From an uncultured archaeon (GTDB lineage Archaea > Nanohalarchaeota > Nanosalinia > Nanosalinales > Nanosalinaceae), in contig CAYQYU010000015.1 in assembly GCA_964421955.1 (NCBI GenBank), forward strand, positions 1 through 20,118: 20,118 bases of DNA. The letters run 5' to 3'. Position numbers and translations under genes: made by a program. Positions 1 through 19,433 of this stretch are shown here, piece by piece. The notes below the pieces were generated by a model, which saw only the letters and a program-made list of their open reading frames with translations, did no database searches and had not been told where the DNA came from. Numbering within the stretch: position 1 is the first letter of the stretch; each line of letters opens with the position of its first letter.

Positions 1-171
1 TGCGAGGGCGAGGATTTGAACCCCGGAACCCCTACGGGACAGCGCATCTGATCTTCCAGCTTCTCATCGGAGATGCTGGTATCGAAAACCTGGCGGTTTT
101 CTCAAACCGACACCTCTAACGAGGAATCGGTGTCCTCAACGCTGCGCCTTTGACCACTTGGCTACCCTCGC
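1..171 (-). tRNA. tRNA-Leu(GAG) with an 88-nt intron at 37/38 (intron 46..133)
   Basis: Reverse complement reads GCGAGGGTAGCCAAGTGGTCAAAGGCGCAGCGTT-GAG-G[intron]GCGCTGTCCCGTAGGGGTTCCGGGGTTCAAATCCTCGCCCTCGCA. The spliced product is 83 nt with a long variable arm. Relaxed BHB: TTGA pairs with intron TCAG, bulges GG|A and AT|G. Confidence 0.93.
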
Positions 172-218
172 ATATCTTGATGTGCTTGAGTCGAGAAGAC
201 TGAGTCTTCGACCCTCGC
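164..218. repeat. Duplicated tRNA 5' end (ACCCTCGC at 164-171 and 211-218) flanking an imperfect inverted copy and the hairpin AGAAGAC-TGA-GTCTTCG (194-210)
   Basis: Direct repeat and hairpins read directly from the sequence. Confidence 0.75.
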
Positions 219-246
219 GTTGACTAAAATAAGGGTGAGAAGCTAG

Positions 247-254
247 TTTTTTAA
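247..254 (-). promoter_or_regulatory. Putative TATA box (TTAAAAAA) for tRNA-Leu(GAG)
   Basis: AT-rich box 36 nt upstream of the duplicated tRNA 5' end at 218. Spacing is similar to the box upstream of tRNA-Glu. Confidence 0.45.
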
Positions 255-263
255 CTCCGTTTG

Positions 264-971
264 TTAGGCGGCGGGTTTTCCGTCTCCCGGTCCCACAGTG
301 GCGATACAGCTCTCCGGTTCTGTCATGTTGTCGTAGCCGTGGAACGAGAGATCCGCGCCTCCAAGCTGGCTCCGCAGTTTTTCCGGTGAAAGCTGGTAGG
401 CCCTGTCATCGACTATCTCGTCCCAGAGCGCCTGGCCGGTCTCTTCCTCGAACCCGTACATCCGGTCCCTGTATTCTTCCATGTTTACGCCGTCCTGTTC
501 CATCAATTCTTCAGTTTCCGGAGCAGGAGATCTTTCTATCACGAAGGCGCCGTAGATTCGAGGTGTCAGTCTTGATGCCATGGCCACCCCCTTTCGGTCA
601 GGATCTCCCTCGACGAAGATATCCTTCTGGTTCAAAGTTTCCCGTGGATGGATCGCCTCCGCTTCCATCGCGTTTTCTACGTACGGAAACAGCTGGTCCT
701 GGAAGTCCTGCCAGCATCCCGCGGCTTTCAGCAGACTCCAGGAGTTCTCTCCAGGATAGACTGTTTTTCCGCCAGTCACTCTCTGGGTTTCCGGTACCTC
801 GCCCGTGAGATTTTCTGTGGAGGCCCGGCTGGCAAAGGAAGCGCGGTAATCAGTTATGAGAAGTCCCGATTCCCGATGGGCCATGTACTCCTGGGCCAAT
901 CTCTCGTGACCCGGTTCCTCAACTTCCAGCACAGGGATACTGTCGGTTTCTTCCAGAAGTTTTTCGACCAT
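264..971 (-). CDS. Hypothetical acidic protein (235 aa)
   Basis: Long ORF with the E/D-rich composition typical of this genome, 24 bp downstream of the hydrolase on the same strand. No recognisable motif. Confidence 0.75.
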   Translation of the reverse strand: MVEKLLEETDSIPVLEVEEPGHERLAQEYMAHRESGLLITDYRASFASRASTENLTGEVPETQRVTGGKTVYPGENSWSLLKAAGCWQDFQDQLFPYVENAMEAEAIHPRETLNQKDIFVEGDPDRKGVAMASRLTPRIYGAFVIERSPAPETEELMEQDGVNMEEYRDRMYGFEEETGQALWDEIVDDRAYQLSPEKLRSQLGGADLSFHGYDNMTEPESCIATVGPGDGKPAA

Positions 972-995
972 GAATTTCCTGTTCTTTCCGCTCGT

Positions 996-1751
996 TTATT
1001 TAACTTCAGTCTCCACGAAACACTGGACCAGCTCCGCAACTTTTCCCGGTTCTTCCCAGAGCATTAAATGACCGCAGTCCAGCTCCACAAGCTCTGCGTT
1101 GAGGAGTTCGGCAGTCCCTCTGGATTTTTCCGGTGTTATTGCCCCATCTTTCCCACCCGCTACAACAAGAGAGGGTTTCTCCCAGTTTCCGAACTCTTCC
1201 CTAACATCGAACTCTTTCATGGCCTCCAGCGGGTATCTGAGCTCATCCTCACTGGCATCCAGAAGTTCCTTTTTTGACATCTGCTTGAGCTTTTCATCTT
1301 CTATCTGTCCAGCATAGTTCTTGGAGATTTTTTCAGCCCATTTCTCCCTGCTCATCGAATCCAGGTTTTCGAGGTAATAATCAAAGCTTTCGATCTCAGG
1401 CTCCGGAGTAGATGAAGGGGTCCCGAGCAGGATAAGCCCTCCTATGTTATCGTACTCTGAAGCGTAGGATAGGGCAGTCATTCCCCCGAGAGAGTGACCC
1501 ACAATCACGGGGTCTTCAAGCCCCAGTTCATCTACCAGTTCGTGGAGATGATCGGCTAGGTCAGCTATTGAGAATTTGGAAGATGTAAGACGGCTCTGGT
1601 CGTAGAAAATTCCGGGGTTTTCAAGCTCTAGATAGTTCCTGACCAGGTTCCAGGATTCTCTGGAGCCAAGCCAGCCGTGGATGAAGATTACTGCAGGGCC
1701 TTCACCCTCTTCTATCTCATGTTCATGTACCGATTCTTCGGCCTCCTTCAT
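996..1751 (-). CDS. Alpha/beta-fold hydrolase (~251 aa)
   Basis: IFIHGW oxyanion motif, GHSLGG nucleophile elbow, GGKDG acid residue and CGH catalytic His. Start trimmed to ATG 1751 because the longer ORF overlaps lplB/lplA in antisense. Confidence 0.88.
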   Translation of the reverse strand: MKEAEESVHEHEIEEGEGPAVIFIHGWLGSRESWNLVRNYLELENPGIFYDQSRLTSSKFSIADLADHLHELVDELGLEDPVIVGHSLGGMTALSYASEYDNIGGLILLGTPSSTPEPEIESFDYYLENLDSMSREKWAEKISKNYAGQIEDEKLKQMSKKELLDASEDELRYPLEAMKEFDVREEFGNWEKPSLVVAGGKDGAITPEKSRGTAELLNAELVELDCGHLMLWEEPGKVAELVQCFVETEVK

Positions 1752-1785
1752 AGAATATAAATTCTGAAATACTACTTCATATTTC

Positions 1786-2043
1786 ATGGGAAAGGCTTCT
1801 GTAAAGGTTGAAGGAGGGAAGCTGGTGAGTGTCAAAGTAGATGACGCAGAAGTTTCTGTTACTGGCGACTTCTTTATTGAGCCTCCGGAGGCGCGCAAGG
1901 AGATTGAGGCCGTACTGGAAAAGCTCGATGAAAACGTCTCAGGGGAGAAGATAACCGAGGCAGTTCTTGATGTAGATGCCGATCTTATAGGTTTCTCGGC
2001 GGAGCACGTTGCAGAAGCATTCATGGAGGCGCGGAAACAGTGA
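1786..2043 (+). CDS. lplB: Lipoate-protein ligase accessory (C-terminal) domain, stand-alone subunit
   Basis: KVEGGKLV..V.VTGDFFIEP pattern typical of the LplA C-terminal domain. GTGA overlap with the downstream catalytic subunit. Confidence 0.85.
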   Translation: MGKASVKVEGGKLVSVKVDDAEVSVTGDFFIEPPEARKEIEAVLEKLDENVSGEKITEAVLDVDADLIGFSAEHVAEAFMEARKQ

Positions 2044-2789
2044 AGTGGAGAATAATTAATGAGGGCGAATACAGCGAGGCGATGCACCACGCGATCGACC
2101 AGGTGCTTCTCGAAAAACTGGATGAGGGAGAGATTTCTCCAACTTTGAGGTTCTGGTACCGGCCGCACACCTCGATTCCGATGGGTCGTTTCCAGGCATA
2201 TCATGATGAGGTCGAGCATGACTACATCGAGGAAAACGATATCGAGGTCGTCAGGAGGATCACCGGGGGTGGTGCGATGTTCTCAGAGCCGGGAAACGTT
2301 ATCACGTACTCTATCTACATCCCGCGTGACCAGGTAAACCCGGATATCGAGGAGAGCTACCAGGAGCTAGATGGATTTGCGGTCAGGGCCCTGGAAGAGC
2401 TCGGGGTTGACGTGGAATACAGGCCCCTGAACGATATCGAACACGAGGACGGAAAGATCGGCGGGGCGGCCCAGATCAGGAAGGATAACGCAGTACTTCA
2501 CCACACCATGATGAGCTATGATCTAAATACCCGCAGGATGCTCAAGGCCCTGAGGATTGGGAAAAAGAAAGTCTCGGACAAGGCTATAAAGTCCGCAGAG
2601 AAACGGGTCTCCAGGATATCAGACCATATTGACCGTTCGCGTGAAGGAGTGGTCCAGTCCCTGATAGAAAGTTTTGTCGAAGAACATGGAGAAGCGGAAG
2701 AAGGCCAGCTAACCGATGAGGAGCTTGAAGAAGCCCGGGAGCTTGCCGAGAGAAAGTTTTCCAGCGAAGATTGGAACAGGAAGCTGTAG
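2040..2789 (+). CDS. lplA: Lipoate-protein ligase A, catalytic subunit
   Basis: PTLRFW, GRFQ, VVRRITGGGAMF, NDI and KIGGAAQ motifs of the BPL/LplA/LipB family. Confidence 0.93.
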   Translation: MKWRIINEGEYSEAMHHAIDQVLLEKLDEGEISPTLRFWYRPHTSIPMGRFQAYHDEVEHDYIEENDIEVVRRITGGGAMFSEPGNVITYSIYIPRDQVNPDIEESYQELDGFAVRALEELGVDVEYRPLNDIEHEDGKIGGAAQIRKDNAVLHHTMMSYDLNTRRMLKALRIGKKKVSDKAIKSAEKRVSRISDHIDRSREGVVQSLIESFVEEHGEAEEGQLTDEELEEARELAERKFSSEDWNRKL

Positions 2790-2790
2790 T

Positions 2791-3309
2791 TCAGTAATCA
2801 GGATTCTTCTCTTCCACGTTTTCTAGATAGTTCTCGTGTCGCGCCATCAGGAAGAACAGGTCGCTCAAACGGTTGATGTAGGTCAGGACCTCCGGCCGAA
2901 TATATTTCTCGTTTCTCAACGCCGCTATTCTCCTTTCAGCCCTCCGGGTCACTGAACGGGCTAAGTGTAGGAACGAGGCTACTTCTACGCCGCCCGCAAT
3001 TATGAAATTCCGCTGTGGAGGTATTTCCTTCTGGATTTCGTCGCAGCGTTCCTCAAGCCGTTCTACATCCTCGGCTGTAATTTTATGCTCGGAGTTCATG
3101 TCGGCGAGCTCGGCCTGGAGAATGTGTAGCTCGTTCTGTATTTCCTCTATTGCGTCCCGCTTCCTGTCCGACTTTGAGGCTACGACTCCGAGAAGAGAGT
3201 TGAGTTCGTCCACGGTCCCGTATGCTTCAAGTCTGTCCGAGTCCTTGGGTACGCTTTCGCCCGATCCGAGATCGGTTTCACCCCTGTCTCCTCGGCCAGT
3301 ATAGACCAT
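2791..3309 (-). CDS. pduO: ATP:cob(I)alamin adenosyltransferase, PduO type
   Basis: YTGRGDRGET, AYGTVDELNS, ARSVTRRAER and YINRLSDLFF motifs. Confidence 0.93.
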   Translation of the reverse strand: MVYTGRGDRGETDLGSGESVPKDSDRLEAYGTVDELNSLLGVVASKSDRKRDAIEEIQNELHILQAELADMNSEHKITAEDVERLEERCDEIQKEIPPQRNFIIAGGVEVASFLHLARSVTRRAERRIAALRNEKYIRPEVLTYINRLSDLFFLMARHENYLENVEEKNPDY

Positions 3310-3399
3310 ACAGTTGTTCAGTATCCGAAATTTTAATTAGTGATGTCTGCTCGAACTGTCGATACTTATGAAAGCTTGATTGCATTAAATCAAAGCTAG

Positions 3400-4521
3400 A
3401 TGAAGCTATTCGAGTGCGAGGCCAAGGAGCTGCTGCGCGGCTACGGCCTTGATATCCCGGGAGTGAACGGCGAAGAGTTCGTCGTGAAGGCACAGGTACT
3501 GATGAAGAACAGGAAACAGCATGGCGGCATAGAATTCGCCTCCAGCCTTGAGGAAGCGGAGGAAGTCGCTGGAGATATGCGGTCAGGAAAAGTGAACGGC
3601 CACGATGTCGAGAAGGTTATAATTGAGGAAAAGATCGATTACTCGGAAGAGTACTACGTCGCGCTGATATACGATACTGACGTTAGAGCCCCGGTGATGC
3701 TGTTCTCAGGCGACGGTGGAACTGGTATAGAAGATCGAGAGGTCGAGAAGCTGGTTCTGGAGAACCTGGAGCAGTGGAGAATCAGGCAGTTCCTGAAGCA
3801 GAACGGAGTTGACAGTAAAGAGCTGAACTCTCTCGGACCAGTCCTGGAGAAAGCCGCCCGGTGCTTCTTTGAGGAGGACGCCAGAATGCTGGAGATAAAC
3901 CCTCTGGTGAAGAATGAGAACGGTTACATGGTGCTCGATGCGATGATCGATCTTGAGGAGGACGCATCCTACCGCCACAGCTGGAGCTATCCTGAAAGGT
4001 CGGAGTTCGGCCGGGAAAAGACCGAAAGAGAGAGGATGGCTGAAAAGATTGACGAGAATGACCACCAGGGAATTGCGGGCAAATACACCGAGCTTGACGG
4101 GGATATTGCGATGATGCTCGCAGGCGGCGGCGCCTCCCTGGCCAACATGGACGCTTTGATGTCCTACGGGGGTAGACCTGCGAACTACACCGAGTACGGC
4201 GGGAACCCGCCGACAGAGAAAGTTTACAGGTTGTCAAAGATAGTTCTCGGGAAGCCAGGCCTGGAAGGGTGCTGGCACGTGGGCGGAACCGCGAACAACA
4301 CGGATATCTACAGGACGATGAAAGGCTTCTGCCAGGCCCTTGAAGAAATTGAACCCGATTACCCGATCGTGGTCAGGAGGGATGGTCCGAACGCGGATAG
4401 AGCATTCGAGCTCCTGAGGGAGACCAGGGAGAAGCTCGGCCTCGACATGAAACTTTTCCGGAATGATACCCCGATGACTCAAACTGCCAGAGTGCTAACG
4501 AGGATGATTGAGGATGATTGA
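3400..4521 (+). CDS. ATP-citrate lyase beta-like / citryl-CoA synthetase large subunit (ATP-grasp plus citrate-binding domain)
   Basis: KLFECEAKELL, VVKAQV and LEINPL (SCS-beta/ATP-grasp), plus ACL-type AGGGAS, ANYTEYGGNP, GGTANNTD and VRRDGPN motifs. Confidence 0.88.
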   Translation: MKLFECEAKELLRGYGLDIPGVNGEEFVVKAQVLMKNRKQHGGIEFASSLEEAEEVAGDMRSGKVNGHDVEKVIIEEKIDYSEEYYVALIYDTDVRAPVMLFSGDGGTGIEDREVEKLVLENLEQWRIRQFLKQNGVDSKELNSLGPVLEKAARCFFEEDARMLEINPLVKNENGYMVLDAMIDLEEDASYRHSWSYPERSEFGREKTERERMAEKIDENDHQGIAGKYTELDGDIAMMLAGGGASLANMDALMSYGGRPANYTEYGGNPPTEKVYRLSKIVLGKPGLEGCWHVGGTANNTDIYRTMKGFCQALEEIEPDYPIVVRRDGPNADRAFELLRETREKLGLDMKLFRNDTPMTQTARVLTRMIEDD

Positions 4522-5179
4522 GGCCAGAACACCGGTTTTTGACATAGGCGACACTTTGCTGCCGGATGACCGGCTGATGAACGAGGCCGTCGAGCAGGTC
4601 CTGATGGAACAGGGGTATTCACAGGAGGATGTTCCGAAGTTCCCGATCTACAGCTACAATATATTTAAACTGCAGGAGGTGCAGGACTTCCTGATGTCGA
4701 ACAACCTTAAAGCGAACCCTGCAGAGATTGTGGAGGCTTACAAGAAAAATGCCCGGGAATTCTTCGCGGCAAGCGATATTCCAGAGGTTCTCATCCGGTG
4801 TAACTCGGAGATAGGGACCATCGGCTTCATCAGCGACAACTCGGTCGAGGAAAAAGAGTTCATAGAAGAGGTCTTGAGACAGCACTACATCGACTATGAG
4901 GGCTACGTGGTCTCGGAGACGGTCGGGCACGAGAAACCTTCTCAGGAAATATTCCGTGCCTTCCTCGATATAAGGGACGAGAGGGGAGAAAACTTCGCCT
5001 ACTTTGGAAACAACGCCCGGGTTGACCAGGGCTGCGAAAAGGTCGGCATGGAGTTTGTATGGGTGAAGCAGTTCAACACATTCGGCTCCAGCTGGGACGG
5101 CAAAAAGATCGAGGAACTCAGCTTTGAAAACGTGAAGGAACAGGTGATGGAGGAGAAGCATGAGCATACTCATAGATGA
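4514..5179 (+). CDS. HAD-superfamily hydrolase
   Basis: Motif I FDIGDTL, motif II ISD, motif [12 protein letters not shown] and motif IV-like [12 protein letters not shown] 4514 follows GAGG and overlaps the upstream stop. Confidence 0.82.
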
Positions 5180-6050
5180 GGACACTCGCGTCCTTGTGCA
5201 GGGAATAACAGGTCGAGAGGCCTCGGAGAAAGTTCCTGAGATGATGGAGTACGGGACAGAGATAGTAGCGGGAGTAACACCCGGGAAAGGCGGGCAGGAG
5301 GTCTCGGGCGTCCCGGTCTACGACACCGTTGAAGAGGCTATTGAAGAACACCCTGAGATTAATGCATCGGTAGTCTACGTTCCGAACTTTGCCGCGAAAG
5401 ACGCCGCATTTGAGGCACTGGAAAACGATATACCGCTGATCAATATCGTAACGGAGAGAATACCTGTGAAGGACGCATGGAAGATAAAGGAAAAGGCGGA
5501 TGAGAAGGATGCCCGGGTCGTGGGCCCGACCTCAGTTGGGATAATATCTCCCGGGAAATCAAAGCTCGGGCCAATAGGAGGGAACGAGCCCGGAAAAGTC
5601 TACGAGCCGGGCAAAGTCGGTATAGTTTCGAAAAGCGGCGGAATGACAACCGAGACCGCGTGGGTTGTTAGGCAGGCGGGTTACGGAGTTTCCACAGCCA
5701 CGGGTCTTGGAGGCGACGTAATCGCTGGCACAACATTTGAAGATGCACTGGAACTTTTCGAGGAGGACGATCAGACGGAGGTGGTCGTGATGTTCGGAGA
5801 ACTCGGAGGTACCTACGAAGAGAGAGCCGCCGAGGCTCTTGAGCGCGGAGATTTCACGAAACCTCTCGTAGCTTTCATCGCAGGAAAGTTCACAGAAGAA
5901 CTTCCGGAGAAGAAGTACGGTCACGCCGGAGCAATCATCCGCGGGAACAGAGGTACTCCTTCAGGAAAAGTTAAAGCTCTCCAGGACGCAGGAGCTCATG
6001 TGGTAGACGTGCATCACGAGATAGGCGAGAAGCTGGAGGAGGTTCTCTAG
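5160..6050 (+). CDS. Succinyl-CoA synthetase alpha-like subunit (citryl-CoA synthetase small subunit)
   Basis: VLVQGITG CoA-binding motif, [18 protein letters not shown] and phospho-His motif GHAGA. GGAGG ribosome-binding site upstream. Confidence 0.92.
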
Positions 6051-6073
6051 TGGCGACGGCTTCATCGAGGAGA

Positions 6074-6499
6074 ATGGTGAGCGAGTCGGAGGAGGACCCG
6101 ATAGTGAGCCGCGCCTTTATAGATTCTAAAGAAGTAAACGGGGAGACAGTTCCCGGCCTGGACCCGTTTGTCGCGTATGAACATGCCTCTCGAAGAGAGG
6201 AGAGAGGAGAGGATCTGGAGTATGAGGTCACAGAAAATGGAGGTATAAGAATCTTCTACGGTCCAGACTACCTGGATGACGATCCAACCCAGGAAAGCTG
6301 GAGTTTCAGTATAAAGATTGAAGTCATGGATGATCAAGACAATGATTTCGACAGTAAGTATTCTTACGTTGAAGTTCGTTACAATCCAAAGATTGAGGAT
6401 CATAATGATGGAGACATGATATGGGAGAATATCGTTGACACGCTTGAAGACAGGACTGTCAGGTATCACAGGGAGATAAAGGGTGGACTCCATGACTGA
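6074..6499 (+). CDS. Hypothetical acidic protein (~141 aa)
   Basis: ORF fills the gap between the SCS-alpha-like gene and the lyase. ATG 6074 follows GAGGAG (alternative GTG at 6050). Visibly more AT-rich than its neighbours. Confidence 0.7.
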   Translation: MVSESEEDPIVSRAFIDSKEVNGETVPGLDPFVAYEHASRREERGEDLEYEVTENGGIRIFYGPDYLDDDPTQESWSFSIKIEVMDDQDNDFDSKYSYVEVRYNPKIEDHNDGDMIWENIVDTLEDRTVRYHREIKGGLHD

Positions 6500-7193
6500 C
6501 TGGGAGACATCGATCTCTTCAAGCGGAGAGGACGCAGTAGTTAGAGGCCGACCTCTTGAAGAAGTCATGGAGATGGAGTTCGCGGAAGCGATCTGGCTCT
6601 TACTGAAGGGCGAAGAACCCTCGGAGAAGGAGTCGGAGATGTTCAACACGATACTTTCGATTTCAATCGACCACGGCGTGGGCAACCCCTCAACGGTCGC
6701 GGCAAGAACTGTCCAGAGCGGCGGAAACTCGATGAATTCCAGCGTTGCGGCAGGAATCCTTGCGCTAGGTGACAAACACGGAGGCGCGATTGAAGACGCG
6801 ATGGAGATACTTCAGTCGGAAAAAGATGCGGAAACGATAGTTGAAGAATATCTTGAAAGTGGTGAGAAAATTCCTGGTCTCGGTCACAAGGTATATGATG
6901 AAGAGGATCCGCGTGCCGGGAAGATTTTCTCGAAGGCAGGAGAGCTCGGCCTTGCAGGAGACGCGGTGGAGAAGATGAAGTCGGTGGCCGAGGAGTTCGC
7001 GGAGAGAAAGGTTGATCTAGTGATCAACGTCGACGGAGCTACCGCCGCGGTCATGAGTGATCTCGGATGGGATTACAGGCTCGGGAAGGGTGTATTCATA
7101 GTCGCCAGGGCACCAGGTCTAGTGGCACACGTCCGTGAAGAGATGGAAAGGGAAGATTTCCGCCGCGATAACGGTGAATACACGGGAGAATAA
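6492..7193 (+). CDS. ccl: Citryl-CoA lyase (short citrate-synthase-fold protein)
   Basis: W.TSIS N-terminus, DHG..NPS..AAR, HGGA, IPGLGHK..DPRA and NVDG motifs. About 233 aa, lacking the large citrate synthase insertions. ATG 6492 follows GGTGG. Confidence 0.88.
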   Translation: MTDWETSISSSGEDAVVRGRPLEEVMEMEFAEAIWLLLKGEEPSEKESEMFNTILSISIDHGVGNPSTVAARTVQSGGNSMNSSVAAGILALGDKHGGAIEDAMEILQSEKDAETIVEEYLESGEKIPGLGHKVYDEEDPRAGKIFSKAGELGLAGDAVEKMKSVAEEFAERKVDLVINVDGATAAVMSDLGWDYRLGKGVFIVARAPGLVAHVREEMEREDFRRDNGEYTGE

Positions 7194-7195
7194 TT

Positions 7196-8413: not shown

Positions 8414-8751
8414 AACGCCCTACCGTGAGAAAATTCTCTGTATCTGGTTAAAATAATCCTTACACAGGAATAAAGCTGCAGAACAGCTTTTGGAGTACCA
8501 AAAGGGAAAAAGAGACTTTTTTATGGCATCTGAAACCGCTTTGAGCGGCTTTGAGCCGCACTGGTTATAAAAATAGGTCCGTTGACTTATACATGTTAAA
8601 ATAGACTTTCAAATGTGTAAGGGTGTATCAAAGTGCTTTTTTTGGTCTATAAACTTCTTTAAGTAGGAAATAACCTAAATAAAGGTTTAAGCGTTCATCT
8701 ATAGTGCTGAACTACCTAAAAACCGCATATAGATTTCACGAGGTGATCACT

Positions 8752-9645
8752 ATGTCAGAAGATCCTGAAGGTCCAGATAGACCAGATGAACCCACAGATG
8801 AGGAACAGGTAGAAGAGACTCATGTAGAAGAAGAAGAAACTCACGTAGAGGAAGAAACCCATTTAGAAACCACGGGAGAAGAGTACGAGGAAATTCACGA
8901 AGAAGAACTGGAGGAGATAGAAGGACGTGAAGAGTCCGATGGGCTCTACGCCCGAACCAAGAGAAGGATAGGAAACGTCAGAGAGAAGTACTTCACCGCT
9001 GACCCCGATTCAGAAAATTGGGGAGACCAGCCAGTCTTTGGAAACACTAGCCGTAGAGGAGTACTCACCGGAATAGGAGGTCTTGCAGCCGGTGCATTTG
9101 CTCTTTCCGAAGCAACCGATAGAGACGGCTGGGCTATCGACTTGGAGCCCGGAGAGTTCGAGGAACAGCCACCTATCGGAGGTGGAGCACCAGAAGATGA
9201 AGGAGCACAAAACGGAACGGATGGAGAAACTCCGGCAGCAGCTGCAGTAGACATCTCCAATCCTGAGCAGTATGCTTTCGAAACCGAACAGGAACTCATC
9301 GATGAAACAGGGTTCTGCTACCCTGGAGAGGCGGATGTCTACATCGGCGCCGTCGATGCAAGTGAGGTCCAGGAGATGTTCGACGAGGGCTCTTTCAACG
9401 GAGACGATCCTACAGGAGCTCTCAGCTTCGAAGAAGTCGAGATGGAACTCAGCGACATCACCGCGCACCAGAACATGTATGCCGTGGATGTCGACCGAAA
9501 GCAGGGTAACAACGGAGACTATGACCTCTTCGTCCAGCTAGTAGGTGAAGAAGACGGAGGTATGTACGTGACTCGCAAGGGTGCGGCACAGGTCTCCAAT
9601 CTTGATTTCGAGGAAGTCTTCGAAGGCTACCATGTATGCAACTGA
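8752..9645 (+). CDS. Hypothetical very acidic protein with an internal twin-arginine-like motif and hydrophobic segment
   Basis: GAGGTGA ribosome-binding site before ATG 8752. Three EETH(V/L)E repeats. SRRGVLTGIGGLAAGAFALS at residues ~100-119. Confidence 0.8.
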   Translation: MSEDPEGPDRPDEPTDEEQVEETHVEEEETHVEEETHLETTGEEYEEIHEEELEEIEGREESDGLYARTKRRIGNVREKYFTADPDSENWGDQPVFGNTSRRGVLTGIGGLAAGAFALSEATDRDGWAIDLEPGEFEEQPPIGGGAPEDEGAQNGTDGETPAAAAVDISNPEQYAFETEQELIDETGFCYPGEADVYIGAVDASEVQEMFDEGSFNGDDPTGALSFEEVEMELSDITAHQNMYAVDVDRKQGNNGDYDLFVQLVGEEDGGMYVTRKGAAQVSNLDFEEVFEGYHVCN

Positions 9646-9661
9646 CCCGGGGTGATCAGAG

Positions 9662-10864
9662 ATGAAACTCAAACGCCTGAAAGATCCCCTTGTTTTATTT
9701 TTAATCTTAACACTGGCAGTCGGAACACTGGCTGCCGGGGTCAGTGCCCAAGACGGCTTCGGATCCGACTCCGACTCGCAGAACTCCGATTCGGAGATCA
9801 CCAGCTCGGATTTCGGATCGGATGCTGACGACTCGAGTGACGGCACCACCAGCGACACCAGCACCAGGTCAACCGCCACCGGATCTGACAACGATGATGT
9901 CGGCAGTTCCCGCGATGGATTCGGCGAAGACACCGATGACGCCGGATTCGGGAATCCGTCCGACTCTGATTCGACTGGTTCAAATGTCTCCAGCGGAGAT
10001 TTCGGAAGCGACACAGACGATTCGGGAAGCGCGAGCGACGGCTACGGTGGAGACGCTGACGATGCAGGAAGCGGCCGTGACGGAGCCGGCGACGATACCG
10101 ACGATTCCGGGGGCATCCGGAACGGTTTCGGTGACGACACTGACGACCAGGGACCGACCAGCCACGAGGGCTCAGGTTCCACGAGTATGGGTGTGACCAT
10201 GTCACCACAGACAGTCGCACCTGGCGATAAGGTGGAAGTCACAGGAACTGTCGGCGGAATTGAAGACGACGTTATCGTGGAGCTGAACTCGGAGCAGGTA
10301 GCGACCGCAACTCCTGACAGTAACGGAGATTTCAGCGCATCCTTCCGGCCACAGGAAACCGGAACCCACACGGTCACGGTTACTTCGGGAGGAATCACCA
10401 GAAGCTTCACTCTCGAGGTGATATCCGATGTCGAGATCACCTCCGTGACCTGGCCTGAATCCGTAGAGGCAGGTTCAACTTTCCAGGTGTGTGCTGATGT
10501 TGTCTCGTCAAGCACACCGCAGGTGACACTCTACGTCGATGGTCAGTCGGTACAGACCATGAACCAGCAGGGAGTCAACTGTTTCCAGACCTCGATGCAG
10601 CCTGGCGACCACCAGCTCCGGATCGAGGCCACGGCCAACGGAAAGTCCGACCAGAGATCGGCTACAGTGAATGCCTATAGCCCTGGAACAGGCAATCCTG
10701 GTGGAGCCAACGGTGGAAATGATGGAGTTAACAACGGGGGGACGCCTGATGCTCAGGGGCCTCTCGGACAGTTTATCAGCTCCGTTTCCGCTAACGCCGT
10801 CCTGATAATCATCGTCATACTCGTGGCGATTGCAGCGGCCGTCGGGGTCCGAAGATTCGATTAA
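9662..10864 (+). CDS. Secreted, membrane-anchored surface protein with D/S/G-rich repeats and two Ig-like domains
   Basis: N-terminal signal peptide (MKLKRLKDPLVLFLILTLAVGTLAAGVSA), about 7 xxFGxDxDD-like repeats, beta-rich Thr/Val domains, C-terminal hydrophobic helix followed by RR. GGGGTGA ribosome-binding site. Confidence 0.88.
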   Translation: MKLKRLKDPLVLFLILTLAVGTLAAGVSAQDGFGSDSDSQNSDSEITSSDFGSDADDSSDGTTSDTSTRSTATGSDNDDVGSSRDGFGEDTDDAGFGNPSDSDSTGSNVSSGDFGSDTDDSGSASDGYGGDADDAGSGRDGAGDDTDDSGGIRNGFGDDTDDQGPTSHEGSGSTSMGVTMSPQTVAPGDKVEVTGTVGGIEDDVIVELNSEQVATATPDSNGDFSASFRPQETGTHTVTVTSGGITRSFTLEVISDVEITSVTWPESVEAGSTFQVCADVVSSSTPQVTLYVDGQSVQTMNQQGVNCFQTSMQPGDHQLRIEATANGKSDQRSATVNAYSPGTGNPGGANGGNDGVNNGGTPDAQGPLGQFISSVSANAVLIIIVILVAIAAAVGVRRFD

Positions 10865-11719: not shown

Positions 11720-11889
11720 TTTCAGAAGTTTGCGGCTACCGGGATCCGAACGAATGGCAGACTCGAAGAACTTTCTTCTGCGATCAAGAAAACTCGAAGA
11801 GTTTTCGATCGATCCCCTTTCTGGAAGGCATTCTCTGAATGCCTTATGATGATCAAACTTTCAGAAGTTTGCGGCTACCGGGATCCGAA
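11720..11889. repeat. Perfect 31-bp direct repeat (11720-11750 and 11859-11889) containing a degenerate tRNA-Glu 3' end, with a hairpin cluster between and after the copies
   Basis: TTTCAGAAGTTTGCGGCTACCGGGATCCGAA occurs twice. Its last 20 nt match 11973-11992 at 17/20 positions. Confidence 0.92.
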
Positions 11890-11972
11890 ACTCTAGCGAG
11901 TTTCTGCTCCTCACAACTCAGAGAGTTGCTTAGTTGCAAGCAAATCCCGGTTCCTAGCATACGTGAAACGGA

Positions 11973-12047
11973 TGCGGCTGCCGGGATTTGAACCCGGGTC
12001 TTCGGCTCGAAAGGCCGAGATGATTGGCCAGGCTACACTACAGCCGC
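11973..12047 (-). tRNA. tRNA-Glu(TTC), intronless
   Basis: GCGGCTGTAGTGTAGCCTGGCCAATCATCTCGGCCT-TTC-GAGCCGAAGACCCGGGTTCAAATCCCGGCAGCCGCA folds into a cloverleaf of 75 nt. Confidence 0.96.
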
Positions 12048-13022: not shown

Positions 13023-13106
13023 ACAGATGATTGTAGAGAGCTTCAATAAAAGCTTGACGAATGTCTGACCGAAAAAGATTAGAGCCTTTGAGACAGTCCC
13101 TATTGT

Positions 13107-13511: not shown

Positions 13512-13534
13512 TACCGGAGCGATAAAAGGGTTCC

Positions 13535-14742: not shown

Positions 14743-14935
14743 TCTTGTGCTCGCCGATTTCGTCAATCGTGTCGACGTGTGTCAGGAAGATTGTCCTGCA
14801 GCAGTACTTCTCTAGCCCAAGATCGTCGAGAACTTCTCCCGGATCTTCCTCATCTTCTTCTACACGTTCCTGGAACTCTTCCCATTTGTCTCCGATGACT
14901 TTGCCGCATGAAAGACATCTAACTGGTATCTGCAT
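14735..14935 (-). CDS. rpoN: DNA-directed RNA polymerase subunit N (Rpo10)
   Basis: [12 protein letters not shown]...[13 protein letters not shown]. Confidence 0.97.
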
Positions 14936-14950
14936 GTTTTGATTGCACCT

Positions 14951-15352
14951 TTAACGGTAGGACTTCTGCTGTTTGTGTCTCGCCCCTTTGGACGACTGGG
15001 ATGGTTTTCTCGTTTCTGTACGTCTCGGATCTTCGACAAGCATGTTCCTGTCGTACTCACGGAACTCTCGCTCGAGTTCATCGTCATCCGTGTATTCGAC
15101 GAGTCCTCGGGCGATAGCCATTCTTATGGCTTCTGCCTGTCCCTGGACCCCGCCGCCCTCGACGTTGACCTTGATCTCAAGGTCATCTACTATTTCTGCT
15201 CCAGCAATTGTGAGGGGCTCCTTGATGCGCTGCCGTGACATCTCTGGTAGCGTGTGGAGAGGCCGGGAGTTAATCCTCAGCGTCCCTTCTCCTTCCTTAA
15301 CTGATGCTCGTGCCTTCGCGGTCTTTCTCTTTCCTGTGGAGTGTACTGCCAT
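14951..15352 (-). CDS. rps9: 30S ribosomal protein uS9
   Basis: TGKRKTAKARA, GGGVQGQAEA, DPRR.E.RK and QKSYR C-terminus. Confidence 0.97.
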   Translation of the reverse strand: MAVHSTGKRKTAKARASVKEGEGTLRINSRPLHTLPEMSRQRIKEPLTIAGAEIVDDLEIKVNVEGGGVQGQAEAIRMAIARGLVEYTDDDELEREFREYDRNMLVEDPRRTETRKPSQSSKGARHKQQKSYR

Positions 15353-15780
15353 CAGTTTCGATCACCTCTTGGAGTCCAGCCTATATACCTTGAGACTTCG
15401 CCAAGCTTTACATAGTTCCTGTTCTTAAGATCGTCGCCTTCTTTTACTTCTACTTCCTCGAAGTCTTCGAACTCGTCGGGAATACCGATATATGTTTTCA
15501 CGCGGTCAAATGCGTCTCCGCCTTCAGAGGTCTTGTACGGGAGCATTCCTCTCACGGTTCTCTTCAGGATTCTCTCTGGAGACTTCGGGAAGTACGGTCC
15601 GTCGTGTCTTGAACCTCTCTCCTTTCTCTGCCGGTACTCGGCCTTGACTTCCTCTTCATCCCCGGAGATAACAGCATCTTCAGAATTAACCACTCTTACC
15701 TCTTCACCGTCTCTGGCATTTCTAGCGATTTCTGAAGCGAGTCTTCCGAGAACCCTGTTTTCAGCATTTATTACTTTCAT
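15352..15780 (-). CDS. rpl13: 50S ribosomal protein uL13
   Basis: VINAENRVLGRLAS, GPYFPKSPERILKRTVRGMLP. Confidence 0.97.
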   Translation of the reverse strand: MKVINAENRVLGRLASEIARNARDGEEVRVVNSEDAVISGDEEEVKAEYRQRKERGSRHDGPYFPKSPERILKRTVRGMLPYKTSEGGDAFDRVKTYIGIPDEFEDFEEVEVKEGDDLKNRNYVKLGEVSRYIGWTPRGDRN

Positions 15781-15834
15781 TCAAAACTCACCTGAGTTTC
15801 TGCATGTCCAGAAAATCTCTGATTTTCTGTCATT
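15777..15834. repeat. 53-bp double-hairpin insert flanked by a TCATT/AATGA duplication at the rpl18e-rpl13 junction
   Basis: TCATT at 15777-15781 and 15830-15834. Hairpins at 15782-15801 and 15809-15829. Confidence 0.75.
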
Positions 15835-16180
15835 TTACAATTCTCACCTCTGAACCTTCTGGATTTTCCTCAACAAGCTCTTCGATAAACTGGAAGCTAC
15901 CGTCCTCTTCAATTGCCTTTCTGGCGCTCCTCGATGCCTTGAACGCGGCAACATCGACCTTCTTCGTCAGACGGCCTGATCCAAGAACTTTTCCCGGAAC
16001 AACTACGGTCTCCCCGTCCTCCGCTACACGTTCGATATCGGAGAGATTGACTTCCGGCCGTTTTCTATTAACTTTTCCAAGATTTTCTCTAACAACACTC
16101 CAGACTGGTGCGTCCTGCTTTTCCAGGAGCTCCAGCGTCTCGACAAGTACGGGATTGGTTGGGTCTGCTTTCTTATCCAT
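15830..16180 (-). CDS. rpl18e: 50S ribosomal protein eL18
   Basis: TNP, VNLSDI, VVVPGKVLGSG and VAAFKAS. GAGGTG ribosome-binding site. Confidence 0.96.
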   Translation of the reverse strand: MDKKADPTNPVLVETLELLEKQDAPVWSVVRENLGKVNRKRPEVNLSDIERVAEDGETVVVPGKVLGSGRLTKKVDVAAFKASRSARKAIEEDGSFQFIEELVEENPEGSEVRIVK

Positions 16181-16284
16181 TTGATAGCACCTCGCGGCTG
16201 TGGTATGCCCGGAGGCTTTCCACTTAAGCAGATCTATTGATCTGCGGCCACTTTGCGGCTGTAGTCATCCAAACGAAGTTAAGA

Positions 16285-16292
16285 TTTATAAA
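16285..16292 (-). promoter_or_regulatory. TATA box (TTTATAAA), likely for rpl18e-rpl13-rps9-rpoN
   Basis: Consensus archaeal TATA box just downstream of tRNA-Leu(TAA) and upstream of rpl18e. Confidence 0.55.
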
Positions 16293-16300
16293 ACGAACTT

Positions 16301-16527
16301 TGCCGGGGCGGAGATTTGAACTCCGGAACCCCTGCGGGACAGGATTTCCAGCTCGAAAACCGCTCACACGATTTTCTCGGTCCTCGTTCTCCTGTGGAGA
16401 ACTTGAGGATCTTAAGTCCTGCGCCTCTGGCCCTCCATGGGCTTGGCAATCGGATCTTTCTCCGCCAGGAGATTGTCCGATAACAAACTCCAAACTCGCT
16501 GGAGTTTGGCCACTTGGCTACCCCGGC
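16301..16527 (-). tRNA. tRNA-Leu(TAA) with two introns: D-loop (16427..16505, 79 nt) and anticodon loop 37/38 (~16346..16410, 65 nt)
   Basis: Removing both segments gives the 83-nt GCCGGGGTAGCCAAGTGGCCAAAGGCGCAGGACT-TAA-GATCCTGTCCCGCAGGGGTTCCGGAGTTCAAATCTCCGCCCCGGCA. The D-loop intron has helix GGCC/GGCC, bulges AA|A and AG|A, and intron stem CTCCA/TGGAG. It lies at the conserved position upstream of rpl18e. Confidence 0.92.
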
Positions 16528-16597
16528 TCTTTGTACATAGCTACGACTATTTTCGTATTTTGTCCCCAAGTTAAAAATAGAGGTAGAATGATTCGGT

Positions 16598-17011
16598 TTA
16601 CAAATGGTAGCCAGGTCCGGTGGCGTCCTCCGCTATTCTTCCGAGCTCTTCCAGATCGAGTTCATCGTTTACGCCGTAGGGACAGTCTATTATCTCGTCC
16701 TGGAAATAGTCTAAGCCAGTTAGTTTCGCATCCTGGAGTTCGTAGTATGCTGCCTCAAGATCAGCTGCAACATCAGTTCCCAGTGCTGCCCGGTCGTGGG
16801 CGTCCAGCGAACTCGGTACCTGGCCTAGACCCATATGGTCTTCAAGTTCTTCTTCGTGTCTTACAAGCATTATGAATGTCTCATAGAGCTCCCTATCTGT
16901 TACCTCTCCATTACTTCTGTGTTCCTGGACTTTTGTCAAGAATGTGTCGATTGCGTGCTCTGCGTCTTCTTTCAGGGTTTCAACTTCGCCCTGTCTTATA
17001 TCTTGAGCCAT
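16598..17011 (-). CDS. Hypothetical acidic protein (137 aa)
   Basis: Acidic ORF filling the rpoD-tRNA-Leu gap, with a TTAAAAA box about 30 nt upstream. No recognisable motif. Confidence 0.7.
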   Translation of the reverse strand: MAQDIRQGEVETLKEDAEHAIDTFLTKVQEHRSNGEVTDRELYETFIMLVRHEEELEDHMGLGQVPSSLDAHDRAALGTDVAADLEAAYYELQDAKLTGLDYFQDEIIDCPYGVNDELDLEELGRIAEDATGPGYHL

Positions 17012-17057
17012 AGAAGTATATACTGGAGCGCAATGTTTTTTAATCTTCCTGTAGTAG

Positions 17058-17630
17058 CTACAGTGACTCTACAGCTTCCTCGAACTCGTCAAGTTCCGCC
17101 TTAACTTCCTGGATTCCGGCCTCGACAAGTTCTTCGTTGGTATACCCGGAGATGGATTCGATCCGGAATAGGTACTCTCCTTCGTCAACTTTCTCATATC
17201 CAACTGTTCCGCCCTGATGCTTTGCGTGTTCTGAACCGTGTCCGAGCCTGGCTTCTGCTTCAAACTCGAGGCCTTGGTCTTCCTTCAGGTCAACTATGAC
17301 TGTTTCCGGGTTGACCGGTTCCGCTTCGTCGTTGTCAGCCTTCAGGTCCTCGGCAAGGACTGTGCCCGGACCCTCCTGCTTTAATGCGATATGGACAGTA
17401 TCTTCCCCGTCAACATTCTCTGGGACGGTGAAGGGTATCTGACCTACGCGGTTGGCGAGAACTTCATCGAAAAGACCTGACTGGTTCTTCGTTATATCAA
17501 GGTGCTGCACCGCGAGCGTTGGAACCTTAGTCATTATTGCCCGCCTTAAAGTGTTGGCCACCGCAGCGTTCGCATCTGTCAGCCTCAGTTTTAGCACGTC
17601 GTCTCCTTCTTCCTCTATCTCTACATTCAT
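17058..17630 (-). CDS. rpoD: DNA-directed RNA polymerase subunit D (Rpo3), short form
   Basis: [52 protein letters not shown] and FRIESISG. Located after rps11. Confidence 0.96.
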
Positions 17631-18007
17631 ACTCTTCGACCTCTTTTTCCGCCCTTCGACCTGACGCCATCATGTGGCTCAGGGGTAACGTCCTCAATAT
17701 TTCCTACATCGAGTCCTGACCTGGAGATTGCACGAATTGCGGGCTGCGCTCCTTTACCGGGCATCTTCTGCTTCTGTCCCCCGGGAGCTCTCACCTGGAT
17801 GTCAACCTCGTCAATTCCTTTCTCCATCGCTTCCTCGGTCGCCTGTTTTGCGGCCTTCATTGCAGGGAAAGGTTCTCCCTGGAGCCGTCCCTTGTCAGTC
17901 ACCATTCCTGAAGAAATCCGTGAAATGGTCTCGGCTCCCGTAGCGTCTGTTATGTGGATGATAGTATTGTTGAAACTCGAGTAGATGTTAACAATTCCCT
18001 TTGCCAT
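17627..18007 (-). CDS. rps11: 30S ribosomal protein uS11
   Basis: [51 protein letters not shown]. Confidence 0.97.
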
Positions 18008-18657
18008 TATTCTTCTTCCTCCTCGGCATCTTCTTCGTTATTTTCGTCTTCATTCTCTTCTGGTTCCGCTTCTTCCTCTTCGTTCTCTAGCTCTTCTTCA
18101 GTCTCTTCCGGCTCTTCTACTCCTTCATCCTCCTTTCGATCTTCAGCTTCGTCTGTTTCGGTTTCTGGTTTCTCCTCTTTATCCTCTTCTGGTTCAGGCT
18201 CTGGAATTATTACTTCGATCTCTTTCTCCTCTTCCTGTGTCAGCATGTACCCGGGAACCGTGACGCGCTGGCCGTCAACGTAGACGTGGCCGTGAACAAC
18301 GGTCTGGCGCGCCTCTGTGACAGTATCGGTGTAGCCGCGCCTGTTGACAGCGGTCTGGAGCCTCCTGTCAAGGAAGTCTGTAACGTTTAGTGATAGTATT
18401 TCTTCGAGTTCCGCGTCATCTCTTACCAGCCCGAGCCGGTTCGCCTTGTCGATAAGTTCTCGCTGCTCCTGCTCGTTTTCGGAAGCGACCAGCTTTCTCG
18501 CCTCGCGCCTGAGATCGCGGAGCTGGCTCTGTGCCTTGTAAACTTCTCTCTTGTTCTTCAGGCCGTAGTCCTCGATCAATTTGTCCTCCCTGTTGATCCT
18601 CTCCTGGTTCCAGCCCTCGTTGGGCGTCTCGTACTGCTTTTTGAGCTTCTTTACCAT
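18007..18657 (-). CDS. rps4: 30S ribosomal protein uS4 with a long acidic C-terminal tail
   Basis: [44 protein letters not shown]. Start set at ATG 18657. Confidence 0.96.
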
Positions 18658-18797
18658 TGAACTTTCACGTGAAGTATCGGTCACTCGAAAACTCGAGAGT
18701 TTTCTGCGGTTGCAGAAGACTCAAAGAGTCTTCGAACGCGGGAACGCGTTACGCTATCGCTCCAGCGTCCTTTCTTTCTTTGATTTTAGCAATCATT
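18655..18797. repeat. 139-bp hairpin-rich insert between rps13 and rps4, bounded by CATT/AATG
   Basis: Hairpins at 18686-18705 and 18714-18734 plus smaller palindromes. CATT at 18655-18658 and 18794-18797. Confidence 0.7.
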
Positions 18798-18798
18798 C

Positions 18799-19287
18799 TT
18801 ATTCCTCCTCGTCTTCCTCGCTGCTTTCTGCAGCCTCTTCTCTCAGCCGGGCTCTTGAAACTCCAACCTTTGAACCTGACCTGAAAGATGATTTTGTCTT
18901 CTGACCTCTCACAGGCAGGCCGATCTGGTGTCTCCATCCCCGGTAAGTACCGGTTTCCTTCAGGCGTCTAATATCGAACTCTTCCTTCAGCTCGAGATCC
19001 GAGCCGATTAGGTGATCGTCCTCACCGGTTTCACGATCCTTCCTTCTATTTCTCAGCCATTCTGGGACATCGGCTTCTTCCGGATTCCTTATTATCTCTT
19101 CTATCTCGTTGATCTGCTCTTCCTCAAGTTCACCTATACGTGTCTCTTCGTCAACATCGATAACCTTTGAGATCGCGTGACCGTACATATCGCCGACTCC
19201 CTGCAGTGAAGTTATAGCCTTGCCTACAGGCTGTGTGCCGTCGATGTCGGTTCGAGCGATTCTTACAATCTCTTTTACTTCAGACAT
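18799..19287 (-). CDS. rps13: 30S ribosomal protein uS13
   Basis: IVRIARTDIDG, PEWLRNRRKD.ETG, TYRGWRH..GLPVRGQKTKS. Confidence 0.97.
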   Translation of the reverse strand: MSEVKEIVRIARTDIDGTQPVGKAITSLQGVGDMYGHAISKVIDVDEETRIGELEEEQINEIEEIIRNPEEADVPEWLRNRRKDRETGEDDHLIGSDLELKEEFDIRRLKETGTYRGWRHQIGLPVRGQKTKSSFRSGSKVGVSRARLREEAAESSEEDEEE

Positions 19288-19315
19288 GGTCGTAACTCAC
19301 AAGTTCCCTGCAAAT

Positions 19316-19323
19316 TTTATAAA
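19316..19323 (-). promoter_or_regulatory. TATA box (TTTATAAA) for the rps13-rps4-rps11-rpoD operon
   Basis: Consensus TATA box about 30-36 nt upstream of the rps13 ATG. Confidence 0.65.
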
Positions 19324-19336
19324 GGGTGGACAGCGT

Positions 19337-19433
19337 CTATCGCTCATCCGTCTTCTTAATCAGTCGAAAATCAGAGATTTTCTCGGTGACCAGAAGACGG
19401 GTTGAGCTATCGCTCATCCGTCTTCTTAATCAG
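19337..19433. repeat. Perfect 27-bp direct repeat of the parvulin gene 3' end with an inverted copy and a hairpin in the 43-bp spacer
   Basis: CTATCGCTCATCCGTCTTCTTAATCAG at 19337-19363 and 19407-19433. Confidence 0.93.

Follow-up and report, generated by a model that had tools for sequence, protein, structure and literature searches.

A dispersed hairpin family, possibly REP-like, beside tRNA genes and at cistron junctions of Nanohaloarchaeota

The stretch of DNA analysed here (the window) is an entire contig (C15; 20,118 bases) of a nanohaloarchaeal genome, G000, which comprises 0.92 Mb in 27 contigs, is 98.8% complete, and has a G+C content of 51%. Its minus strand carries a PPIase gene and then the genes S13-S4-S11-RpoD-tRNA-L18e-L13-S9-RpoN in operon order, together with genes for tRNA-Leu(GAG) (1-171), tRNA-Glu (11973-12047), and, putatively, tRNA-Leu(UAA) (16301-16527). 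Eleven small hairpins lie in and between these genes. An earlier note on this DNA had described them as one family, and we find all 11 at the coordinates that it gave, including a TTTG variant (15782-15801) and a copy with symmetric ends (15809-15829). We regard them as members of a repeat family specific to Nanohaloarchaeota, a dispersed palindromic module whose closest analogues are bacterial sequences of the repetitive extragenic palindromic (REP) type, with their composite forms BIME and REPIN, and which has been partly co-opted for translational coupling; we put the probability of this explanation as a whole at about one-half. The window was compared with the complete genome of a relative from another genus, G016, and with DNA contigs from runs X2 and X3, the latter being from another sample of the same study.

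Each basic unit consists of a palindromic stem of 6-10 bp, opening with GAA(R) and closing with (Y)TTC, that is flanked by a single unpaired A on its 5' side and a single unpaired G on its 3' side (C..T on the opposite strand). Single units measure 17-25 nt and modules about 55 nt. As the earlier note had claimed, structure is what the family conserves, in that stems co-vary and loops differ, and the asymmetry of the ends proves to be a property of the whole genome rather than of the window alone. Thus G000 contains 1668 perfect hairpins (stem of at least 6 bp, loop of 3-9 nt), of which 399 are intergenic, and the largest stem class is that starting with GAA (108 in all, 55 of them intergenic). 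Forty of the 55 intergenic GAA stems have A..G (23) or C..T (17) flanks, whereas all other hairpins are spread evenly over the 12 flank pairs, with 113-151 each and no preference. A strict count of the family in G000 gives 40 copies, compared with a mean of 2.15 and a maximum of 4 in 20 dinucleotide shuffles. Moreover, when matches are collected with the anchors AGAA-N11-TTCG, the four inner positions are complementary in 15 of 55 cases in G000 (0.21 expected) and in 23 of 72 in G016 (0.28 expected); because this test began from the anchors alone, stem pairing is not an artefact of selection. G016 has 107 GAA stems, 65 of them flanked by A..G or C..T, and GAA is the largest hairpin class in both genomes.

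Scanning other genomes, as the earlier note had proposed, extends the family across the phylum. The core GAAAATC-N3-4-GATTTTC occurs in 50 of 70 species genomes, at 0-18 copies per genome, and the reversed control gives no match in any of the 70; the exact core is absent from three genomes of genus g19, four of g21, and two of g15. Loops of this core, in the a..g reading, are mostly TYY, and the flank logo shows A ahead of GAA and G(A) behind TTC. An Rfam search of the window and six hairpin-rich loci (E-value of at most 0.01) matched only tRNAs and the start of 16S rRNA, and no hairpin family. No description of the hairpins was found in the literature searched, the coverage of which did not extend to supplementary files. 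Nanohaloarchaeal genomes of about 1 Mb, which have little room for junk, nevertheless carry this phylum-wide repeat at the borders of their most highly expressed genes.

We assigned a context to 52 strict copies in G000 on the basis of crude gene calls. Eighteen lie between co-directional genes, six are in tRNA introns (five of these being a..g in the tRNA sense), and 15 lie close to a tRNA gene (at most 200 nt away) or a T-loop fragment (at most 60 nt away); one is located between divergent genes and one at a contig edge, 51 nt ahead of the 16S rRNA 5' end. The other 11 fall inside crude coding-sequence calls, several of them being generic GAAC stems or doubtful calls. Neighbouring genes mostly encode ribosomal proteins and tRNAs, but also FtsZ, an S-layer protein, TopoVI B/A, Sec61-beta, and pyrophosphatase. 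The units are dispersed, in both orientations relative to transcription, in non-essential transcribed DNA: tRNA introns, leaders, trailers, the 16S leader, inter-cistron spacers, and gene 3' ends. In the complete genome G016 their orientation tracks local gene direction, with no separate signal of replication strand. The placement beside tRNA and ribosomal genes, in introns or intergenic DNA, that the earlier note had reported for the window also holds, with the qualification that 15782-15829 lies inside an unannotated 18-codon micro-open reading frame (micro-ORF).

These locations bear on whether the hairpins are intrinsic terminators or 3'-end stabilisers that act in both directions by means of U-rich 3' arms, a role that we consider very unlikely for the family. 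Some copies are indeed found just past the stop codons of terminal genes (PPIase, ahead of the S13 promoter; ftsZ; and the S-layer gene, where a T-rich run follows), and T4 occurs in stems on both strands, so that a few 3'-terminal copies could still act in this way. On the other hand, six copies are in tRNA introns, many are located between ribosomal protein cistrons and in bridging micro-ORFs, many stems are of the type GAAGA/TCTTC with no T run, and there are about 50 copies per approximately 1000 genes. Nor do most copies have a T run behind them, as expected of an intrinsic terminator, in which a U run comes after the hairpin where the transcription unit ends. Copies in introns and between co-translated cistrons within operons therefore argue against a plain terminator role, in agreement with the earlier note.

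Units are gained or lost between and within genera. At 14 syntenic junctions of G000 and G016 the hairpins are kept in five cases and not in nine, so that orthologous loci do not all carry the same hairpins, as an ancient conserved structure, the alternative to insertion raised in the earlier note, would have them do; of the remaining 15 hairpin spacers, 11 yielded no pair of orthologues, and in 4 cases the genes do not adjoin. The junction from PPIase to S13 is empty in G016, G010, and G015, in which the S13 promoter directly follows the stop codon and the spacers measure 47-52 nt. G000, G006, G013, G004, and G002 have one or two units at this point. Each begins with part of the gene end in inverted form, which is followed by a linker, a small hairpin, and a further direct copy of the gene end, past which the sequence continues as at the empty sites. 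In a second sample an extra gene-end copy is present at 4 of 16 loci. Similarly, the S13-S4 spacer is at most 22 nt long at 18 of 23 loci compared with 141 nt in G000, and the S14-S8, S8-L6, and L32e-L19e spacers are 5-15 nt long in G016 compared with 46-71 nt in G000, where the old ribosome-binding site and ATG are kept as the start of a micro-ORF. The junction between the genes for topoisomerase VI subunits B and A (Top6B-A) has a bare ribosome-binding site of 10-16 nt at 9 of 29 loci and a spacer of 54-125 nt at the other 20, and both states occur within each of the genera g8, g10, and g11. Kept in both G000 and G016 are the doublet after ftsZ, with altered stems, the S5-L30 module, and the Top6 module. 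A conserved 280-nt spacer after the ftsZ doublet also has two poly-C tracts of about 8-10 nt (contig C8 of G000, around 8600-8800; also in G016).

Direct duplications bear on how units might have been inserted. Direct repeats of at least 12 nt bracket 13 of 89 strict copies in G000 and G016, compared with 14 of 3000 random sites; they are of variable length (13-31 nt), and one repeat copy usually abuts the hairpin at a distance of 0-3 nt. The common layout on one strand is a first copy X1, a generic hairpin, a linker, an inverted partial X, and X2, which is the true gene boundary. The window has two perfect cases. In the first, the PPIase gene (19407-19754, minus strand) has at its functional 3' end one copy of a 27-nt repeat (19407-19433), and an extra copy (19337-19363), 100% identical and comprising the last eight codons and the stop, is located just before the S13 promoter. 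The 43-nt insert between the two (19364-19406, minus strand; folding z-score -3.4) contains the gene end again as an imperfect inverted copy, able to pair with either of the direct ones, then a linker and a small hairpin (19365-19383, minus strand; 7 bp, loop of 3 nt). At two other loci, one of them in G013, two successive units are present at this junction and hence three copies of the PPIase gene end, and one of the G013 copies is closer to the version in G000 than to its own.

The second perfect case lies downstream of the intact tRNA-Glu(UUC) gene (11973-12047, minus strand), together with hairpins and tRNA 3' fragments. Two 31-nt copies (11720-11750 and 11859-11889), 100% identical, contain on the minus strand a tRNA 3' fragment, from T-loop to discriminator, and the trailer; a third copy (11962-11992; 68% identity) overlaps the 3' end of the real tRNA-Glu. 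Between the two perfect copies is an inverted doublet, composed of a weak first member (11764-11779, minus strand; 5-6 bp) and a second member (11787-11807, plus strand; 8 bp, loop of 3 nt). The last 4 nt of the copy at 11859-11889 are also the first 4 nt of another hairpin (11886-11905, minus strand; 7 bp, loop of 4 nt, a..g in the tRNA sense; z -2.7), in which the 3' TTCG continues as the T-loop of the tRNA 3' fragment. An X2 contig joins 11719 to 11859, leaving one 31-nt copy, but this is weak evidence because the length of the repeat equals that of the assembler word.

Duplicated tRNA 3' fragments that begin at the T-loop and adjoin tRNA genes are also what integrase attachment (att) sites leave behind, and G000 has four tyrosine recombinase genes, all outside the window, one of which adjoins a tRNA gene. 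It is nevertheless highly improbable that the tRNA-associated copies are att scars in which the hairpins are incidental. The repeats bracket inserts of only 37-110 nt, which contain no genes and hence no integrase, and these inserts have the same hairpins as sites unconnected with tRNA, among them start-codon modules and the 3' end of PPIase. In addition, an identical tRNA-Glu trailer and hairpin are found behind the paralogous tRNA-Glu(CUC) gene on contig C2, an identity at two paralogous loci that runs against att scars and that our preferred explanation leaves unaccounted for as well.

At many sites the composite unit is an inverted doublet of the kind known from REP sequences and REPINs, composed of a first hairpin (HP1) in the form c-HP1-t, a linker of 6-8 nt, and a second hairpin (HP2) in the form a-HP2-g. 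Positions were measured between co-directional genes of G000 and G016. In the mRNA sense, 18 of 30 c..u copies are located at most 34 nt past the upstream stop, typically about 30-35 nt ahead of the next start, and 9 of 38 a..g copies end at most 5 nt before a called start, with a Shine-Dalgarno sequence in the loop. About 19 spacers that were printed out show one design, in which the stop codon is followed, after 0-25 nt, by HP1, the linker (often GGNCNCGC-like), HP2, and ATG or GTG; in operons generally, HP1 is placed 3-34 nt past the upstream stop and HP2 ends 0-5 nt from the next start. The Shine-Dalgarno core is in the HP2 loop and the 3' arm completes the ribosome-binding site (GTGAT-TTTYGA), which identifies the conserved 3' TTCGA as the local ribosome-binding spacer; in tRNA trailers the same letters extend as the T-loop TTCGAAT. 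Because unrelated junctions have the linker and the letters outside the stems in common, the modules appear to be copies of one another. As part of the explanation to which we give even odds, HP1 would be generic and HP2 would be built from the neighbouring gene-boundary sequence plus an inverted copy of it, the boundary copied being a ribosome-binding spacer with its start codon, a tRNA T-loop with the 3' end, or the last codons of a gene.

One module of this design and a further inverted doublet are present in the operon. In the module between L18e and L13, HP1 (15809-15829, minus strand) has 9 bp, a loop of 3 nt, and the symmetric ends mentioned above, and HP2 (15782-15801, minus strand), the TTTG variant, has the Shine-Dalgarno sequence AGGTGA in its loop and 3' arm; its stem ends 1 nt before the L13 ATG, and the module folds with a z-score of -3.1. 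The 141-nt spacer between S13 and S4 contains a plus-strand member (18714-18734; 8 bp, loop of 3 nt) and, downstream on the transcribed minus strand, a second member (18686-18705; 7 bp, loop of 4 nt), and the pair (18686-18734) can alternatively fold as one long hairpin with 1:4 and 2:3 pairing (-28 kcal/mol, z -4.5). Modules in the window thus fold better than shuffles (z -3.1 to -4.5), whereas some single copies are weak. Ahead of the S13-S4 doublet and 2 nt past the S13 stop is an open reading frame (ORF) of about 15 codons (18740-18797, minus strand) that makes no bridge to S4, and a similar lysine-rich stretch follows the S13 stop at loci L032 and L033 of relatives. Two structural ideas were considered and set aside. 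A three-hairpin switch, in which the 3' arm of HP1 pairs with the 5' arm of HP2 and frees the ribosome-binding site, would depend on a 2:3 helix of 5-7 bp that is weaker than HP2. That the small hairpins are in each case the tips of longer stems was rejected on the basis of 44 sites, which average 5.9 enclosing pairs compared with 10.2 for shuffled flanks, PPIase and some tRNA sites being exceptions.

Almost all of the modules lie within micro-ORFs that bridge the adjacent genes. Among co-directional spacers of 35-130 nt, 21 of 32 with a hairpin contain a micro-ORF that overlaps or abuts both neighbours, compared with 19 of 487 without one. These micro-ORFs have 13-34 codons, an ATG that overlaps or abuts the upstream stop, and a stop codon that overlaps the next start (ATGA, GTGA, TAATG, or TGATG). 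In the window, the micro-ORF at 15777-15833 (minus strand; 18 codons, MTENQRFSGHAETQVSFE) contains both L18e-L13 hairpins and overlaps the gene on either side, with its ATG at the L18e stop and with its TGA at the L13 start, as ATGA in each case. A contig from run X3 lacks 15776-15828 and has six other letters instead, and by our reading of this joint L13 would start there at an ATG overlapping the L18e stop, which is the opening ATG of the micro-ORF in G000. A peptide conserved across sites was ruled out, since HP1 is read in all three frames, and the feature that is kept is accordingly an open frame; only among Top6B-A orthologues does the micro-ORF peptide look conserved, with synonymous changes and an in-frame gap.

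Coupling by termination-reinitiation in archaea needs a stop/start overlap or a very short distance, according to the available portions of PMC6728339 and PMC10666635. Such overlaps (ATGA, GTGA, TGATG, or TAATG), or abutting codons, are recreated at both module ends in the 21 of 32 hairpin spacers with a bridge, and, as in known coupling, the genes joined encode subunits of complexes (ribosomal proteins, TopoVI B/A). To judge from these sequences, a relay micro-ORF would restore stop/start closeness across an insert of 50-70 nt. The difference from known archaeal coupling is that the connection here passes through a micro-ORF of 13-34 codons with two hairpins, and the portions of PMC6728339 and PMC10666635 available describe no such relay. 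If the modules are functional, they constitute a compact natural device, comprising a relay micro-ORF and a hairpin that presents a Shine-Dalgarno sequence, which links the translation of neighbours across an insert and which could be reused. Whether the modules are functional or mobile, annotation should be extended to some 20 micro-ORFs in each genome that now lack it and to several tRNA genes that standard tools missed.

Signs of function at individual sites come from HP1 at the Top6B-A junction, for which we made an alignment of 10 genomes, half of the 20 filled loci, picked for similar length. Here 94% of cells are paired, compared with 37-60% in slid controls, both sides have changed in three of the seven pairs, and the covariation score was reached by none of 500 shuffles. 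Some copies are thus conserved across genera with compensatory changes, which likely points to function at those sites. Such changes, the phylum-wide conservation of the core, the retention of the ftsZ doublet and the S5-L30 and Top6 modules in G000 and G016, the regular placement relative to stops and starts, and the occurrence of the same stem variants in different genomes are all consistent with a purely functional RNA motif, which arose in place, is immobile, and is bound or cleaved by one conserved protein that acts on pre-tRNA, pre-rRNA, and strongly expressed mRNAs. We consider that explanation unlikely, although less so than the terminator or att readings. The core occurs in both orientations to transcription, so that the RNAs differ (loops UYY and RRA), and such a motif accounts neither for the excess of long target duplications over controls, nor for whole modules that are alike, linker included, at unrelated junctions, nor for filled and empty states within genera.

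Bacterial REP, BIME, and REPIN sequences resemble the hairpins in that the palindromes are short, imperfect, and asymmetric at their ends, and in that a genome has tens of them, located in transcribed DNA outside genes, either between cistrons or where genes end (3'). Further points in common are regular pairing in alternating orientation with the capacity to fold as one long hairpin, and presence or absence at orthologous sites. The nanohaloarchaeal hairpins differ in belonging to an archaeal DPANN lineage, in having A/T-rich GAA..TTC stems, in the identity of one arm of the second hairpin with the sequence of the target itself, and in their duplications of 13-31 nt, their occurrence in tRNA introns, and the micro-ORFs that span them. 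MITE-like repeats, such as Correia, ERIC, and the Rickettsia palindromic elements, are small non-autonomous palindromic inserts that are co-transcribed and tolerated when an ORF or expression signals are kept. The hairpins described here share these features but are far smaller, and their duplications are far longer than the usual 2-10 nt; neither a transposase nor a parent insertion sequence with matching ends was found among the families searched in G000, which did not amount to a general survey of insertion sequences.

Movement of true REP or REPIN sequences by a RAYT (a Y1 HUH transposase) would fit the short asymmetric palindromes, the inverted doublets foldable as one long hairpin, and the extragenic transcribed locations, but is scarcely credible here. 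The flank logo has no GTAG or CGTC head, and a six-frame search of the 98.8% complete genome with Y1_Tnp (PF01797) gave no match with an E-value of at most 0.1, while the control search matched 7 of 14 genomes. To our knowledge, moreover, long target duplications are not typical of the single-strand transposition of RAYT or IS200-type elements. The earlier note had proposed an element that is REP-like or deposited by an enzyme in some other way; the REP-like part of this proposal is supported, as the hairpins are dispersed and palindromic and form REPIN-like inverted doublets, whereas enzymatic deposition is conjectural.

In the explanation that we favour, units would have been inserted close to the ends of genes, with a long part of the target being duplicated on insertion. 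Such duplication would restore the gene intact, so that the insertion survives, and would also permit later precise loss, with surviving copies clustering at gene boundaries. Between cistrons, a micro-ORF would read through the module from the upstream stop to the downstream start and rebuild the stop/start overlaps required by termination-reinitiation coupling, while HP2 would display or partly mask the Shine-Dalgarno sequence; some modules may thus be under selection today as devices for translational coupling and RNA structure. The units could have spread through an enzyme that has escaped recognition, or else through template switching or ectopic conversion between the short motifs common to all targets (ribosome-binding sites, T-loops). 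A more specific version, which we advance tentatively and hold to be rather doubtful, is an undescribed form of insertion without a known transposase, reverse transcriptase, or Cas1, in which the generic hairpin unit anneals to GATTTTC-like targets, such as ribosome-binding spacers and T-loops, builds the complementary arm, and duplicates 13-31 nt; inserts at gene ends would be self-repairing and reversible, and relay micro-ORFs made by the host would pass ribosomes onward. If the module is mobile, it represents a REP-like system that lacks a known enzyme for mobilisation and duplicates its targets over unusual lengths, and it would show concretely how sequence could be gained by tRNA introns and by disrupted tRNA genes.

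Several observations weigh against the explanation that we favour. The lack of a RAYT or reverse transcriptase gene, noted earlier for the window, extends to the whole of G000, in which no RAYT/Y1 transposase, reverse transcriptase, or Cas1 was found, and the only TnpB-like match (the best with PF07282, at 19 bits) proved to be a TFB gene and was discarded as a lead. Long duplications are present at only 15% of sites. The inverted target copy is imperfect and the direct copies are perfect, a combination that a single templated event does not predict. In G013, the three gene-end copies between PPIase and S13 differ only at synonymous sites, a pattern not accounted for if the duplicates are dead. 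In start-codon modules, the likeness of the two ribosome-binding copies is mostly confined to the Shine-Dalgarno sequence, and function alone could explain it. Moreover, G000 and G016 have the same stem variants with no genome-specific subfamilies, which fits a common functional constraint as well as it does mobility. Finally, the evidence consists of DNA sequence, and the contexts and spacers depend on gene calls from our own crude caller.

The tRNA-linked copies add detail to this picture. The tRNA-Leu(GAG) gene (1-171, minus strand) has an 88-nt intron (46-133), the span of which is supported by an X2 contig that skips exactly these positions, and the hairpin at 83-102 (minus strand; 7 bp, loop of 4 nt, a..g in the tRNA sense; z -3.3) is the middle one of three in this intron. 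A further hairpin (194-210, plus strand; 6 bp, loop of 3 nt; z -1.5, weak on its own) is located between the stop codon of an ORF (264-971, minus strand) and the 5' end of the tRNA-Leu(GAG) gene, and reads c..u on the transcribed minus strand. The putative tRNA-Leu(UAA) gene (16301-16527, minus strand), which was parsed by eye, contains a 65-nt anticodon-loop intron (16346-16410) and a D-loop insert of about 70 nt, the bounds of which are approximate; ARAGORN and the Rfam search both missed it. In its intron lies a hairpin (16354-16377, minus strand; 9 bp including G-U pairs, loop of 4 nt, a..g in the tRNA sense) that is weak on its own (z -0.9) and is preceded by a second conserved hairpin (TTC..GAA) and then ACC. 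Only 27 Rfam tRNA matches were obtained in G000, and since this genome is 98.8% complete many of its tRNA genes are probably heavily interrupted.

Copies in tRNA introns, together with the presence of one EndA gene in G000 and a subset of copies in which the flanks form a 3-4 bp helix beside a 3-nt bulge, might suggest that the hairpins are mini-introns or parts of bulge-helix-bulge motifs cut by the tRNA splicing endonuclease, and splicing between gene-end copies would also explain the coding-like extra copies. There is little to recommend this idea, however. The copies inspected by eye, which is a weak test, have no second bulge at 4 bp and have continuous stems, the tRNA-Leu(GAG) hairpin is located mid-intron, far from the splice sites, and modules bring a good Shine-Dalgarno sequence and start codon of their own. 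Thermoproteales, Caldiarchaeum, and Asgard archaea have tRNA introns that are transposed and tRNA genes that are disrupted, and these, as far as the available parts of the relevant reports describe them, are similar in that related introns occur in different tRNA genes and positions and that tRNA 3' fragments lie beside intact genes; the nanohaloarchaeal module differs from them, within the same limits, in being found outside tRNA genes as well and not at splice sites.

The second intron hairpin has the opposite polarity: its stem, TTC..GAA, stands on a helix of 4 bp that has a 2-nt bulge, and ACC comes next. Several tRNA introns have it immediately 5' to the GAA..TTC hairpin, and that introns share it is left unexplained by the REP-like explanation. 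It was seen at 16378-16408 of the window (minus strand), at 60-135 and 1890-1925 (minus strand) of locus L097 on contig C17, and at about 103640-103672 of contig C1. On C17 it is tandemly duplicated within one intron, and there it also interrupts a T-loop fragment. Contigs C1 (about 122185-122553) and C14 (about 9339-9747) of G000 share the same tRNA, trailer, hairpin, and 23-nt duplication of the tRNA 3' end with identical hairpin and flanks, which reflects either a real duplication or redundancy of the assembly.

Two further features of the window lie apart from the hairpins. An alpha/beta-hydrolase ORF of 407 amino acids (996-2219, minus strand) overlaps the start region of an LplA-like ORF (1786-2789, plus strand); our crude caller left the hydrolase out, and the start sites there need checking. 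On the plus strand, a run of ORFs at 3400-7193 has matches to ATP-grasp_2/Citrate_bind, HAD, and CoA_binding/CoA-ligase, then one unassigned ORF, and finally the C-terminal domain of Citrate_synt. This cluster resembles ATP-citrate lyase or citryl-CoA synthetase/lyase, which is unexpected for a symbiont genome of 0.9 Mb.

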